The translations under genes were made by a program, and so were the position numbers. Under the pieces are notes generated by a model, which worked only from the letters and a program-made list of their open reading frames with translations, ran no database searches and was not told the DNA's origin. A DNA stretch of 63,554 bases, counting the filler. It is 3 parts of 3 records of this genome, joined end to end, with 100 filler letters (N's around TTAATTAATTAA, not from the genome) between each part and the next. Parts side by side here need not be neighbours in the genome. Positions count along the whole stretch, not along the records: positions 1 to 31,712 come from SRR22947725_5528; 2 more parts are not named here. One strand, given 5' to 3'. Shown here in pieces: positions 22,155 through 32,647 of the stretch; within the stretch, counting starts at the first letter, position 1, and every line of letters begins with the position of its first letter.

Positions 22155-22595
22155 CTATTCCCGGCCATCCTCCTCTGCTGGGCTCTTATACGGGTCAGCA
22201 TCCCCGGCATACTCAGCAGTCTTTGCTTGACGTTCCGTCTCAGCGTCGCGCTCGCTCGCTGTGCGCAGTAAATCGGTGATAGCCGAAGCATTCTCGGGGA
22301 TCCCATCCAAAATGAACTCAAGGCTGGGGGTAAGTCGCGCGGTGATGTTCTTCCCCACCTCGGTGCGCAACATTCCCGTAGCAGCCTTCAACGCTCGTTG
22401 ACTATCAAGGCGCTCTTGGTCATCCCCCAAGACGGTGTAAAAGACACTGGCGTGCTGAAGGTCACCTGTCACCTGAACGTCCGTGATGGTGACAAACCCC
22501 AGACGGGGATCTCTCAATCCCCGCTGGAGCCGCTCGGCAAGAATCTGACGGATCAAGTCCGCCATCTTCCGAGCTCTCGGTGAGTTACTACTCAC
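22155..22595 (-). CDS. rbfA: Ribosome-binding factor A
   Basis: [12 protein letters not shown]...TPSLEF; overlaps the infB stop. Confidence 0.96.
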
Positions 22596-25185
22596 GAATC
22601 TTTTCCTTCATTTCGATGGTTTCGATTTCGTCACCAATCTGGATGTCCTTAGTCTTTCCCAGCCCGATACCGCATTCGAAGTCCGTCTTAACCTCGGTGA
22701 CGTCATCTTTGAAGCGACGGAGCGAGTCGATGGCCAGGCCATCGAGGATCACCACGCCATCGCGAATAACCCGAGCTTTGGCGTTTCGAGTGATCGTTCC
22801 CGAACGGACGATGCAACCGGCAATGGTGCCAGCCTTAGAGGACTTGAATACTTCGCGAACCTCAGCAAAACCGGATTGCACTTCTTCGTATTCAGGCTTG
22901 AGCATTCCCTTGAGCGAGCTCTCGATTTCGTCCAGAGCGTTGTAGATCACCGAGTAGAACCGAACATCGACACCTTCACGCTGGGCCCGCTCTCGAGCCT
23001 TCGCGTCGGGTCGGACGTTGAATCCAACAATGACCGCGTTGTCGATCGTGGCGAGGTTGACATCGCTCTCGGTTATCGCACCCACACCGCGGTGAATGAT
23101 GCGCAATTGCACCGATTCGCCGACCTCGATCTTGAGCAACGACTCCTCCAGTGCCTCCACAGCACCGGAAACATCACCCTTGATGATGAGGTTGAGGGAT
23201 TCGATCTTTCCATCCTCCAGCGCCTTGGTGAAGTCCTCAAGGTTGATGCGCTTGCGAGCCCTAGCCAGCAGAGCGTTCCGCTCAGCCGCTTCGCGCTTCT
23301 CCGCGATCTGTCGAGCGGTGCGGTCATCATCGGTCACGATAAAAGTGTCACCCGCGCGAGGAACGCTCGAGAGACCCTGCACCGCAACGGGACGAGAGGG
23401 GTAAGCCTCTTCCACCGGGTCACCGTTTTCGTCCGTCATGGCACGAACACGGCCATACGCGGTTCCCGCCACAATGGCTTCTCCCACCCGAAGGGTGCCC
23501 GACTCGATGAGCACGGTTGCCACAGCGCCACGGCCCTTGTCGAGCTTGGCTTCGATCGCCACACCGCGCGCGGTGCGGTTGGGGTTGGCCCGAAGGTCAA
23601 GCCCTGCGTCAGCAGTCAGAAGAACGGCATCGAGAAGGTCATTAATGCCCTCACCCTTGAGAGCCGACACCTTCACCATTTGGGTGTCCCCACCGTACTC
23701 TTCCGCCACCAAACCAAACTCGGTCAGCTGCTGCAGAATTTTGTCGGGGTTCGCTCCGGGGGTGTCCATCTTGTTGATCGCAACAACAATCGGAACGGCT
23801 GCGGCTTGAGCGTGATTGAGGGCCTCGATGGTTTGAGGCATGATGCCATCGTCTGCAGCAACCACCAGGATGGCGATGTCGGTAACCTGCGCGCCGCGGG
23901 CACGCATCGCGGTGAACGCTTCGTGGCCGGGGGTATCCACAAAAGTGATGGCCCGTTCGATTCCCTCGTGCTCCGTCCACACCTGGTAGGCGCCGATGTG
24001 CTGAGTGATTCCACCAGCTTCCCCTGCTGACACGTTCGCGTTACGAATGGCGTCCAGCAACCTTGTCTTACCGTGGTCAACGTGACCCATTACGGTGACC
24101 ACGGGTGGACGGATCACCAAGTCCTCTTCGTCTTCAACCTCATCAAGGTCGATGTCAAAGCTTTCTAAGAGTTCCTTGTCTTCATCCTCAAGAGACACAA
24201 TGAGGACTTTGTAGCCAAGCTCCGAACCCAAAACTTCGAAGGTCGCCTGATCCAAGGATTCAGTGGCGGTCGCCATTTCTCCCAGCTGGAAAAGCACTGT
24301 TACGAGGTTCCCGGGAGGAACCGGAAAACCGGTCAGCGTCTCGATCTTGTCGGCAAAATCGTTCATCGAAGCGCCTTGGCGCAACCGGATTACGGTCGAA
24401 CCGTCGCCGCGAGGGATAGATACACCGCCGAGGCTGGGTGCCTCGCGCATTTCATACTCTTGCCGCTTCGTCCGCTTCGACTTGCGGGACTTACTCTTAC
24501 CGCCGCCGCGGCCGAAAGCTCCTGCCGTTCCCCCACCGGGGCCGCGACCGCGACCACCTGCGCCAGGACGGGCACCACCAGGTCCGGGACGGGAACCACC
24601 AGGTCCACCGCCGGGTCCGGCGAAACCAGGAGCACCACCGGGGCGACCGGGGGCGCCGGTGCGCTGCTGGAAGGGCGCTCTGGGTGCTCCTTCACGCTCG
24701 GCGGGGCGTCGGGGCGTTGCACCCTGACCTGGCCTGGCAGCTGTGGGGCGACCCATGCCTTGGGCGGAAGCAAAAGGATTATTTCCCGGACGGGGAATGC
24801 CAGGACGAGCCATCCCCTGCGCGGAAGCAAAAGGATTGTTTCCCGGACGAGGAATTCCGGGGCTTGCTGGCTCCTCCGCGCCAGAATCTGGTTCAGCAGG
24901 CTTCTCTGCGGCGGGTGCCGGGGGTGTATCTTCGGCGACCGGAGCCGGAGGTGCCGGCTGCGCGGCAGGCTTGGGAGCAGGCTTCGCCTCTTTTTTCTCC
25001 TCGGGAGAGACAGGCACGACGCCCTCTTCCGCAAAAGCTGCTTTGAGCTTGCGGGCAACCGGAGGCTCTACCGTCGACGAAGGCCCCTTAACAAACTCGC
25101 CAATTTCTTTCAGCTTCTCAAGAGTGCGCTTGGAATCAATTCCCAGTTCTGCAGCAATCTCGTGTACGCGTGGTTTTCCAGCCAC
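22588..25185 (-). CDS. infB: Translation initiation factor IF-2
   Basis: KPRVHE N-terminus, [29 protein letters not shown] 25185 is better spaced from AGGAG than ATG 25188. Confidence 0.98.
24753..24861. repeat. 57-bp period tandem duplication inside infB ([17 protein letters not shown] twice)
   Basis: Two diverged copies at 24753-24804 and 24810-24861, in frame. Confidence 0.85.
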
Positions 25186-25191
25186 CATTCT

Positions 25192-25269
25192 CCTGTCTGG
25201 GCGAACCCAGTCAGGGCGCGCCGCTACCTACATACGAGGCTCATACTGAGCCGTTCATGAGGTTTCCAT
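25192..25269 (-). promoter_or_regulatory. Overlapping mini-ORF chain plus SD-occluding hairpin upstream of infB
   Basis: METS* (25269-25255), MNGSV* (25258-25241), MSLVCR* (25244-25224), M* (25233-25228); hairpin CCUG-A-CUGGG-UUCG-CCCAG-A-CAGG (25215-25192). Confidence 0.6.
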
Positions 25270-25544
25270 TAGCCATTCAGCCTTGTCTTAGCGAGGTCGG
25301 TCGACCTACTGAGGTTTTCCAGGACATTGCAGTCAAGAGTGGGGCCCATTTTCAGTGCCCTACCCCATGCTTTGCGTTGAAGAGAAAGAGTGAGACATTC
25401 CTGGTTGTGGTGCACATAGGCCCCACGACCCGGATGCTTCACCTTCTCATCAACAACCACCTGGTGAGTCACCGCCACACACCGCAGAAGGTTCTCTACT
25501 GAATCTGTGGACTGACACCCCAGGCATCGCCTGATTACTGCCAT
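25269..25544 (-). CDS. ylxR: YlxR/DUF448 family RNA-binding protein
   Basis: RRCLGC...LLRCV...GRGAYVH...C; between nusA and infB. Confidence 0.9.
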   Translation of the reverse strand: MAVIRRCLGCQSTDSVENLLRCVAVTHQVVVDEKVKHPGRGAYVHHNQECLTLSLQRKAWGRALKMGPTLDCNVLENLSRSTDLAKTRLNG

Positions 25545-25588
25545 TGTAGCCCCTTATGCCTTTGGGCCTGCCACCAGGTGACCTGGCG

Positions 25589-26596
25589 TTAGGAATCCAT
25601 CACAGAATCGGGCTGAATATCGATCTTTGCCCCGGTGAGTTTCGCAGCCAATCGAGCGTTTTGTCCCTCTTTCCCGATAGCCAGCGAGAGCTGGTAGTCG
25701 GGGACAAGGGCACGAACTTGGCGGGCTTCTTCATCCAAAACGAAAGCGCTCGTGACCTTGGAAGGACTCAGCGCGTTTGCGACAAACTTTGCGAGATCGT
25801 CGGAGTGGTCGACGATGTCAATTTTTTCTTCGCCCAGTTCTGCTTGAACAGCCCGGACCCGCTGACCCAACTCACCGATGCAAGCACCTTTAGCGTTAAT
25901 ACCTGCCTCCAGAGCCTTCACGGCAATTTTTGTTCGATGTCCCGCTTCGCGGGCAATGGAGGTGATATCGATGAGACCTTTTTGGAGCTCGGGAACTTCG
26001 AGGGTGAAGAGCTTACGAATCAAGCCCGGGTGGGTGCGGCTGACAGTAATCGCGGGGCCTTTGGTGCCCTTTTCCACCTTGGTCACATAGGCGCGGATTC
26101 TCGCGCCATGCTCGTAAGTTTCTCCAGGAACCTGTTCCTCGGGCGGCAAAATAGCCTCCACATCGCCGAGGTTCACATGAATCATCCGAGGGTTGGGGCC
26201 CTGTTGAATCACACCGGAGACGATATCGCCTTCTTTGCCTCGATAGTCACCGAGGATGCGGTCATCTCCGATGTCACGCAGTCGCTGATTGATGACCTGC
26301 TTGGCCGCGTGAGCGGCAATTCTGCCGAAATCATTGGGCGTATCTGCCTCTTCGCCAATTTTCTCACCCTCCTCGTTGAGGATGGGGGTGAACAGCGTGA
26401 CGTGGCCTGTTTTCTTGTCCAGTTCCACGCGTTCTCTGGGCGCGTCAAGGTCGAGACGCTGTCCGCGATTATCGGAGAGGCCCATGTGCTTCTCATAGGC
26501 CACAAGAATGGCCTGTTCGATGATGAGCACGAGGTCATCAAAGGGGATTTCGCGCTCTGACTCCATCAGCTTGAGCACGCTCATATCGATGTCCAT
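25589..26596 (-). CDS. nusA: Transcription termination/antitermination factor NusA
   Basis: FGRIAAHAAKQVI, SRTHP, GACIG, LSLAIGKEGQNARLA; start at MDIDMS (26596). Confidence 0.97.
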   Translation of the reverse strand: MDIDMSVLKLMESEREIPFDDLVLIIEQAILVAYEKHMGLSDNRGQRLDLDAPRERVELDKKTGHVTLFTPILNEEGEKIGEEADTPNDFGRIAAHAAKQVINQRLRDIGDDRILGDYRGKEGDIVSGVIQQGPNPRMIHVNLGDVEAILPPEEQVPGETYEHGARIRAYVTKVEKGTKGPAITVSRTHPGLIRKLFTLEVPELQKGLIDITSIAREAGHRTKIAVKALEAGINAKGACIGELGQRVRAVQAELGEEKIDIVDHSDDLAKFVANALSPSKVTSAFVLDEEARQVRALVPDYQLSLAIGKEGQNARLAAKLTGAKIDIQPDSVMDS

Positions 26597-31812: not shown

Positions 31813-32647
31813 TGTTGGAAAATCGACTCTAATTAATCGAATTTTAGGAGAAGAAAGAGTCATGGCGGTTGATCTACCTGGAACTACTCGAGATTCAATA
31901 TTTATTCCTTTTGAAAGAGATGGTCAGCAATACACTCTGATTGATACAGCGGGTATAAGACGTAAAAGAAGTGTCAGTGAAAAGGTCGAAATTTTTAGTA
32001 TTATCAAAGCTAAAGATGCCATCAATGATTCACATGTTGTTATTTTGGTATTGGATGCCCATGAAGGGGTCACTGAGCAAGATGCAACACTTTTAGGGCT
32101 AATAGCAGACAAAGGAAGGGCCTTACTCATTGTTATCAACAAATGGGATGGCTTAGATGATTATCAAAAAAGTGAAGTAAAAAGAAAGTTAGATATAAAA
32201 CTCTCATTTGTAAATTACGCAACAGTTCATTACATTTCTGCACTCCATGGCTCAGGTGTTGGTAAATTATTTTCACCCATTAAAAGATCTTATGAGAATG
32301 CAGGCGGAAGGTTTCCTACCTCACTTCTAAATCGAATATTAGAACAGGCCAACAACACACATCAACCTCCTCCAGTTGCTGGAAAGAGAATGAGGCTAAA
32401 GTTTGTCAATCAATCTGATGTTTTTCCGCCCACATTGATTTTTCATGGCAATCATGTTCAAAATGTACCAAATAGTTACGAGCGCTTTCTAAAGAATTTT
32501 TTTATTACAGCTCTCAAGTTAACGAATACTCCTATTAAAATTCAATACAAAAGTGGCGACAACCCATTTAAAGATAAAAAAAATATTCTATCTGCACGCC
32601 AAATTCAAAAGAAAAAGCGGCTGATGAAGTTTGTCAAAAAGAAATAA
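31813..32647 (+). CDS. der: Ribosome biogenesis GTPase Der, 3' part
   Basis: (V)GKSTLIN, PGTTRDSI, DTAG, NKWD, ISALHG, C-terminal KH-like domain; truncated at the contig start. Confidence 0.96.

Follow-up and report, generated by a model that had tools for sequence, protein, structure and literature searches.

What occupies the spacer between ylxR and infB, and could it help to set how much of initiation factor IF2 a cell makes? The question was raised by a stretch of DNA of 63,554 nucleotides (nt), filler included, hereafter called the window, which consists of three parts of three records of one genome joined end to end. On its minus strand, the 83 nt between the two genes hold a chain of three very short open reading frames (mini-ORFs), linked by overlapping stop and start codons and followed by a hairpin, termed B, shortly before the Shine-Dalgarno (SD) sequence of infB. 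IF2 is an essential and universal translation factor, and most work on how infB is controlled concerns E. coli, where the operon's transcription and processing were the subject. Judged by comparison of related loci, the chain is a conserved feature, beyond chance, and is selected on its reading frame and on its start and stop codons. We favour, with slightly better than even confidence, the reading that it is a cis-acting translational leader of infB, conserved in class Actinomycetes, in which a relay of reinitiations leads to hairpin B and the preferred effect is positive coupling.

The mini-ORF chain in the ylxR-infB spacer

The features of the spacer and of the genes on either side are given below in the direction of transcription. 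A1 denotes an alignment, made with MAFFT, of 45 unique rows from the family Microbacteriaceae.

25544-25269, minus strand: ylxR (DUF448/YlxR, 91 aa; Pfam PF04296, E 1.5e-17), with its stop TAA at 25271-25269
25270..25287, minus strand: conserved nucleotide block AGGCTGA...GGCTAA, 5' of mini-ORF1 (A1 columns A18, G19, G20, T22, G23 and A24 nearly invariant)
25269-25255, minus strand: mini-ORF1, ATG GAA ACC TCA TGA (METS), whose start overlaps the ylxR stop as TAATG
25258-25241, minus strand: mini-ORF2 (MNGSV), start and stop both within ATGA overlaps, without an SD
25244-25224, minus strand: mini-ORF3 (MSLVCR), without an SD; its stop TAG at 25226-25224 is the last of the chain
25233-25228, minus strand: ATG-TAG nested inside mini-ORF3
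25252-25238, minus strand: possible hairpin GGCUCA-GUA-UGAGCC from fold prediction, containing the second UGA and the third AUG
25194-25190, minus strand: infB SD sequence AGGAG (AGGAGA invariant in A1)
22588..25185, minus strand: infB (IF2; Pfam and relatives), with the conserved start GTG at 25185-25183

An earlier reading of the window from its sequence alone (the sequence-only reading) had written the chain on the minus strand as TAATG-METS-ATGA-MNGSV-ATGA-MSLVCR-TAG, and this was correct to the base. The ATG at 25269-25267 shares a base with the TAA of ylxR. The frame changes by -1 at every link, and all three frames are thereby occupied by the three ORFs. The same reading had counted in the nested ATG-TAG, which is indeed present in the window but is not conserved, most relatives reading TTTG at this place, and it is therefore taken as a product of chance.

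The GTG was taken as the start of infB, and not the ATG at 25188 where the list of ORFs had put it, because the GTG is kept in relatives in which the ATG reads ATT and because its spacing to GGAG is fitting: the GTG lies 4 nt downstream of GGAG, the ATG only 1 nt. This extra in-frame ATG (25186-25188), 3 nt 5' of the GTG, is present in the window and in its closest relatives, loci L001, L002 and L003, and all other relatives have ATT or a similar non-start. Pairing with the anti-SD sequence at infB reached -6 kcal/mol or stronger in all of 100 loci.

Conservation of the chain

The locus was placed in Pontimonas, family Microbacteriaceae, with L001 as a 99% identical relative. Among 79 related loci, 54 matched both YlxR and the IF2 N-terminus; the other 25 were truncated or non-actinobacterial. 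Wider sampling used the first 60 residues of IF2 as query against genome groups centred on G142, the genome of L001, and the terms order, class and phylum denote groups defined relative to that genome. The order draw searched 61 genomes, of which 59 matched, and gave 30 loci; the class draw searched 81, of which 73 matched, and gave 30 loci, 3 of them discarded as belonging to unpublished genomes; the phylum draw searched 101, of which 77 matched, and gave 23 new loci after 4 had been discarded for the same reason. The unpublished genomes enter only the tallies of genomes searched and matched, and no claim made here depends on them. Family, order and class together comprised 110 regions, 104 of them unique (50 Microbacteriaceae, 28 order, 26 class).

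A chain was scored where at least three linked ORFs, each of at most 15 codons, followed one another. It was found in 100 of the 104 unique regions: in 50/50 of the family, 26/28 of the order and 24/26 of the class. Three ORFs were by far the commonest chain length (n = 81), followed by four (n = 18), two (n = 3), and one and five (n = 1 each); the regions that fell short were L094, L137, L147 and one more with a short chain. Dinucleotide shuffles of the same regions contained such a chain in 411 of 10,400 cases (4.0%), random windows of the same loci in 8 of 2,070 (0.4%), and the reverse complements in 2 of 104 (1.9%). The sequence-only reading had proposed to test whether the chain persists across Actinobacteria while its peptides vary; in family, order and class it does, at 100/104 against 0.4-4.0% in controls.

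In whole genomes the pattern ATG-8N-ATGA-10N-ATGA was present as a single copy, at infB, in four of five; the fifth has TTG as the first start. Outside the Microbacteriaceae the architecture is the same and the sequence different, typically GATGGGCACCCGATGAGCACCCAGCGATGAAC. Within the family the spacer is far more conserved than YlxR, which is 33-80% identical. The invariant positions of A1 are the first ATGA, CTC, the second TGA, AGGAGA and GTGGC, and the first ATGA and second TGA are kept in 45/45 rows.

In the phylum draw, chain and hairpin were found together only in four loci (L149-L152), those with a class-like IF2 N-terminus. The other 19 included 18 that were readable, 16 of them with 0-2 links and two (L158 and L172) with three linked ORFs in a different arrangement. 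A second architecture was seen in this draw in L158, L165 and L172, and also in L159 and L164, where one or two mini-ORFs linked by GTGA and TTGA run straight into the infB start. In that lineage IF2 begins LSNPRVYE with a TTG start, and the mini-ORFs overlap the start of infB.

Locus L139 of the class draw has four links, and the unit ATGACCACACG stands three times before its last mini-ORF. It shows that the chain can be lengthened by duplicating an 11-nt unit in tandem.

Reading frame, start and stop codons

The marks of selection on reading frame and codons are as follows. The links comprised 182 NTGA (4-nt overlap) and 38 URR-NTG (1-nt overlap). Adjacent RTGA words were spaced by 2 mod 3 in 138 of 157 cases, as compared to 84 of 374 in control windows, most often by 14 nt (n = 95) or 11 nt (n = 28), and also by 17, 20, 32 and 35. 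Start codons were ATG (n = 294), GTG (n = 16) and TTG (n = 10), the internal stops TGA (n = 195) and TAA (n = 25), and the 100 final stops TAG (n = 39), TAA (n = 38) and TGA (n = 23). In the family the first base of a start mutates only to T (L070, L005) or G (L057, L079), the ORF1 start is kept as ATG or TTG throughout, and the ORF3 stop column reads T followed by AG, GA or AA. ORF3 of L049 and L056 is shorter by an in-frame deletion of 3 nt. The peptides vary, with 20, 12 and 26 distinct forms at the three ORF positions in the family and 26, 33 and 46 in the order and class together.

Part of the junction sequence is conserved beyond the ATGA itself: the second codon is AGC or AGT, and outside the family CGA stands before TGA, in 40 and 29 of 50 ORFs of the order and class. 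These words, whose nucleotides are kept whatever the frame of ylxR, speak for another explanation, in which a protein, for instance NusA, YlxR or IF2, binds an RNA word, RAUGAGY, present in three copies, and the start and stop codons are by-products. A binding motif needs neither the 2 mod 3 spacing kept at several lengths, nor starts that change at their first base only to G or T, nor the use of all three final stops, nor a deletion that stays in frame, and with all of these counting against it we hold this explanation to be very improbable.

The infB start pairs strongly with the anti-SD sequence, as said above; the starts of ORF2 and ORF3 reach -6 kcal/mol or stronger in only 0-4% of cases, against 17-21% at random sites, and without an SD these two ORFs would be reachable by reinitiation only. 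At the ORF1 start, SD-like pairing was found in 42% of the loci from order and class, as against 0% of those from the family.

How, then, would ribosomes enter? Of 93 loci with a chain and a ylxR match, 62 have ylxR tied into the chain, its stop overlapping the ORF1 start in 36 and sharing a chain stop in 26. In 25 others the end of ylxR lies upstream of the chain by 0-300 nt, and 6 have some other arrangement. Relative to the conserved nucleotides, the ylxR stop of family members lies in any of the three frames, or further upstream; the block must therefore be conserved as RNA or DNA and not as YlxR coding sequence. A ribosome entering in any frame would be funnelled to the same last stop, which fits the varying frame of ylxR. 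For annotation it is a caution that ylxR ends in varying frames within a conserved non-coding element.

The possible hairpin at 25252-25238 was also scored for covariation. Of its cells 94.8-96.6% were paired, but double changes numbered 1 and 0, which does not exceed the level of shuffles, and this hairpin is not claimed here.

Two hairpins after the last stop

What meets a ribosome at the end of the chain? In 84 of 100 loci, 38-46 nt separate the end of the last stop from the start of infB. Two structures can form in this interval of the window:

25222-25200, minus strand: hairpin B (GGCG.GCCC-UGACU-GGGU.CGCC), which sets in 1 nt past the final stop and accompanies the chain wherever that occurs
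25215-25192, minus strand: hairpin A (CCUG-A-CUGGG-UUCG-CCCAG-A-CAGG), 8 nt after the last stop, with its 3' arm running into AGGAG

Folds were computed for 95 loci, 5 being left out for an atypical distance or lack of a GGAG. The segment from stop to GGAG, 34 nt on average, had a mean predicted free energy of -17.3 kcal/mol and a mean z of -2.5, with z below -2 in 72%. Hairpin B sets in 0-4 nt past the stop in 91 of the 95 (mostly 1 nt), and in 86 it stops 5-7 nt short of GGAG. RNAalifold on A1 had returned 12 pairs and no covariation, since the variable hairpin region is misaligned there, and folds of single sequences, together with a covariance model and counts of pairs, were used instead. 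The model of the outer 6 pairs of B recovered 96 matches, of which 84 distinct rows were scored. In these, 90.5% of cells were paired, 65 cells, spread over four of the six pairs, were changed on either side of the pair, and the score for covariation was 0.426 as compared to 0.223 in shuffles, none of 500 shuffles being as high and slid controls reaching at most 0.107; the alignment was fitted to the structure, which somewhat favours the structure in these figures. Hairpin B does not contain the SD. Nor does it resemble an intrinsic terminator, as no U run follows it and the SD does.

Hairpin A was scored as an anti-SD CCUG with an inner helix of at least 4 bp. Its inner helix shows the compensatory variants CUGGG/CCCAG, CCGGG/CCCGG, CUCGG/CCGAG and CUUGG/CCAAG, and its SD arm one CCUC/GAGG double change. 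The sequence-only reading had placed an SD-masking hairpin 8 nt after the last stop. That hairpin exists in the window, with the compensatory changes just given, and was found in 42/47 loci of the family and 15/24 of the order, but in 0/24 of the class; the hairpin that is kept wherever the chain occurs is instead B, without the SD.

A and B have nucleotides in common and are thus mutually exclusive. In the family their predicted energies are close (E_A -17.0 vs E_B -16.9 kcal/mol; difference -0.14, standard deviation 2.56), lying within 2 kcal/mol of each other in 26 of 46 loci. Near-equal energies and shared nucleotides together suggest, as a prediction from folding, a bistable region right after the last stop in the lineage of the window.

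Such a region would allow the chain to act in the opposite sense to the coupling that we favour. In a negative feedback switch, B would keep the anti-SD strand apart from the SD, a ribosome completing the three reinitiations would melt the 5' arm of B, A would form, and infB would be shut. As the throughput of the chain would increase with IF2, IF2 would limit its own synthesis. The geometry agrees with this, as the 5' arm of B (nt 2-10 after the stop) is within reach of the ribosome and the anti-SD CCUG begins only at nt 9; masking 6 nt lowers the predicted SD accessibility of the family from 0.55 to 0.41; A and B differ little in energy, and compensatory changes are found in both. Reinitiation goes up when IF2 is overexpressed and down when IF3 is (Yoo and RajBhandary 2008, as cited in the available text of the review PMC12548453), which makes such a switch attractive; it also supports the inference of the sequence-only reading that IF2 synthesis would respond to initiation capacity. 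Masks of 9 nt or more predict opening instead, and A is absent from all 24 class loci, which keep chain and B, so that the switch cannot be the ancestral role. We regard it as a serious rival, but an unlikely one.

At many loci (L010, L069, L091 and others) the final stop is overlapped by a further start, as TGATGG, TAATGG or TAGTGG. From such a start a fourth ORF would pass through hairpins B and A and enter infB out of frame. The window has no such start, reading TAGCGG at this place.

Transcripts and published data

Metatranscriptome contigs from three studies bridge ylxR, the spacer and infB, and no differences were seen inside the spacer. RNA contigs of four runs from these three studies end within about 30 nt of one another, just inside the ylxR 5' end, at 25509, 25523, 25536 and 25520. 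These contig ends hint, weakly, at a transcript that ends or begins between nusA and ylxR.

A scan of positions 25100-25700 found neither a sigma-70-type promoter nor an intrinsic terminator. This is in keeping with a further alternative, in which the mini-ORFs serve as cover for the spacer, keeping ribosomes on a gap of 85 nt, which would otherwise go untranslated, so that Rho loading or RNase attack is blocked, with the hairpin as an mRNA stabiliser or processing site. The available text of a preprint on M. tuberculosis (10.1101/2022.06.01.494293) lends it some weight, reporting that ORF overlaps are common and that Rho-dependent termination is likelier in non-overlapping ORFs. It leaves unexplained why the intervals between stop and hairpin and between hairpin and SD are fixed, why A and B compete, and why whole genomes have the pattern at infB only, and we consider it decidedly unlikely.

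In M. tuberculosis the first mini-ORF of the infB chain corresponds to an entry in supplementary file 1A of Smith et al. 2022 (PMC9094748), a "putative leaderless ORF" on the minus strand at 3147962-3147948. It overlaps the stop of Rv2840c (ylxR; 3148318-3147959) and ends in GTGA, and the annotated infB start, 3147873, lies 85-89 nt past it. In the part of that source available to us it is one of 370 unannotated leaderless ORFs, with no link to infB, a chain or a hairpin. Its listing as leaderless means that a transcript 5' end has been mapped to the ATG with which this first mini-ORF begins. The same study set the coverage of retapamulin ribosome profiling (Ribo-RET) to zero for 50 nt past leaderless starts, so that ORF2 and ORF3 could not be called. 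The supplements of Shell et al. 2015 (PMC4633059), as far as available, list a start at 3148151, inside Rv2840c and 278 nt upstream of Rv2839c, and not 3147962, which accordingly comes from the other source cited by Smith et al.

Searches of the full-text literature, with most subscription journals outside their reach, found no description of mini-ORFs or a leader before infB, in agreement with the sequence-only reading, which knew of none. In their available text, neither the preprint on M. tuberculosis upstream ORFs and NUGA overlaps (10.1101/2022.06.01.494293) nor the 2025 review of translational coupling (PMC12548453) mentions infB.

Proposed function of the leader

The leader that we favour may be depicted as follows: Three ORFs of 3-6 codons, one per frame and joined by AUGA or URR-AUG overlaps, would take up ribosomes finishing ylxR, whatever its end frame; in some lineages ORF1 may itself be an entry. 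Termination and reinitiation would pass these ribosomes on to the last stop, which abuts hairpin B. Once the last stop has entered its A site, a ribosome would hold the 5' arm of B in the mRNA channel, and with the arm held there, translation of the chain would melt B and free the strand next to the SD. The melting of B would remodel the ribosome-binding region of infB, and the ribosome would be released near SD-GUG, some 15 nt away once B refolds. In the Microbacteriaceae the arriving ribosome may operate a two-state switch between A, with the SD masked, and B, with the SD free. We take coupling as the common and ancestral function, the preferred net effect being that upstream translation promotes IF2 synthesis.

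Which way the effect runs was approached by predicting SD accessibility with part of the segment after the stop masked. Over all loci it was 0.57 unmasked, 0.51 with 6 nt masked, 0.64 with 9 and 0.76 with 15. The sequence-only reading had held that a ribosome must reinitiate three times to open the infB site. This was not borne out, since the predicted accessibility falls or rises with the length of the mask, that is, with the assumed reach of the ribosome, and the effect may even run the opposite way.

Several points weigh against promotion of IF2 synthesis by the chain. The predicted effect flips its sign between the 6-nt mask (lower) and the masks of 9-15 nt (higher). In class loci the SD is unmasked in 24/24, so that the melting of B has no obvious target there. 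In about one third of the 93 loci ylxR does not feed the chain directly, and in the family ORF1 is without an SD. Translation of ORF1-3 is putative, read from the sequence and from an M. tuberculosis entry that, in the published supplement, is defined by a transcript start and not by ribosome footprints. The RNA contigs show neither a single transcript nor its 5' ends nor an expression level. The repeated GAUGAGC-like words at the junctions could be a binding motif. Finally, the loci share ancestry, and the counts given here overstate their independence.

A bolder reading is that of a homeostat for initiation capacity. Three serial reinitiations would give a steep, roughly cubic read-out of IF2 and fMet-tRNA against IF3 and recycling, and the ribosome would either flip B and A or cross the folded hairpin in a shunt-like manner to SD-GUG, setting IF2 throughout the Actinomycetes. 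If this were true, IF2 synthesis would be set by the cell's own initiation activity. We put the homeostat forward as a speculative and rather doubtful reading. The infB leader does make a question testable, namely whether reinitiation senses the balance of initiation factors, and as a frame-selected leader found class-wide it offers a concrete handle on how the IF2 level is set in Actinomycetes, industrial and clinically important genera included.

The locus and the window

The gene order NusA, YlxR, IF2, RbfA was confirmed by Pfam. One further feature upstream of the chain was placed from the ORF list:

26626-25589, minus strand: nusA (coordinates from the ORF list, NusA confirmed by Pfam)

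An Rfam scan at the locus returned only Mu-gpT-DE, at 18.3 bits against a gathering score of 49, and a microRNA model, neither of them relevant. The guanine-plus-cytosine (GC) content of the window is 0.54-0.60 over roughly the first 32 kb and 0.24-0.37 over all the rest, which makes the window composite. The break near 32000 points to a contig that is chimeric or joined, or else to a foreign island of very large size. YlxR and the motif were not found in searches of genome G001 and its family, and the match of the window to G001 probably concerns the AT-rich half and not the Pontimonas half.

Comparison with known systems

If it works as proposed, the chain would be the first natural multi-step reinitiation cascade known to us in bacteria. 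The unfolding of an SD-masking structure by upstream translation is known from rpmI-rplT in the infC operon and from the coat and replicase genes of MS2. As in these, the SD region is paired, its CAGG being bound by CCUG in hairpin A, and ribosomes from upstream would terminate close by; unlike in these, the upstream units are mini-ORFs, a competing hairpin B lies between stop and SD, and A is found in part of the range only. The shunt of plant pararetroviruses, in which a short ORF ends a few nt before a stable stem and the landing site lies just after it, resembles the infB leader in geometry only (short ORF, 0-4 nt, stable stem, 5-7 nt, initiation site). It belongs to eukaryotic scanning and uses other machinery, and to our knowledge no bacterial ribosome shunt has been established.

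Termination-reinitiation between two genes that overlap (as ATGA or TGATG; Huber et al. 2019, PMC6728339, in the text available) shares with the chain the overlaps of -4 and -1 nt and a downstream start without an SD of its own. The chain differs from such pairs in having three serial steps, ORFs of 3-6 codons and no conserved peptide, and in that its last step ends 38-46 nt before infB, at a hairpin and without a start overlap. Single leader ORFs and the engineered bicistronic design, as described in the available text of PMC12548453, likewise use a tiny ORF to carry a ribosome past a repressive RNA structure. The cases given there have one ORF overlapping or abutting the target start; among them is no conserved three-frame cascade, and none concerns infB. 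MIRUs, the interspersed repetitive units of mycobacteria (Supply et al. 1997, as cited in PMC12548453), are likewise intergenic, with mini-ORFs that overlap their neighbours by -4 nt. MIRUs are dispersed mobile repeats, whereas the infB chain occurs as one copy per genome (in four of five genomes) and is vertically conserved across the class. The ingredients, namely coupling by overlap, carrier ORFs and masking of the SD, are thus known; what appears new is the conserved cascade through three frames, with its end at a hairpin upstream of infB.

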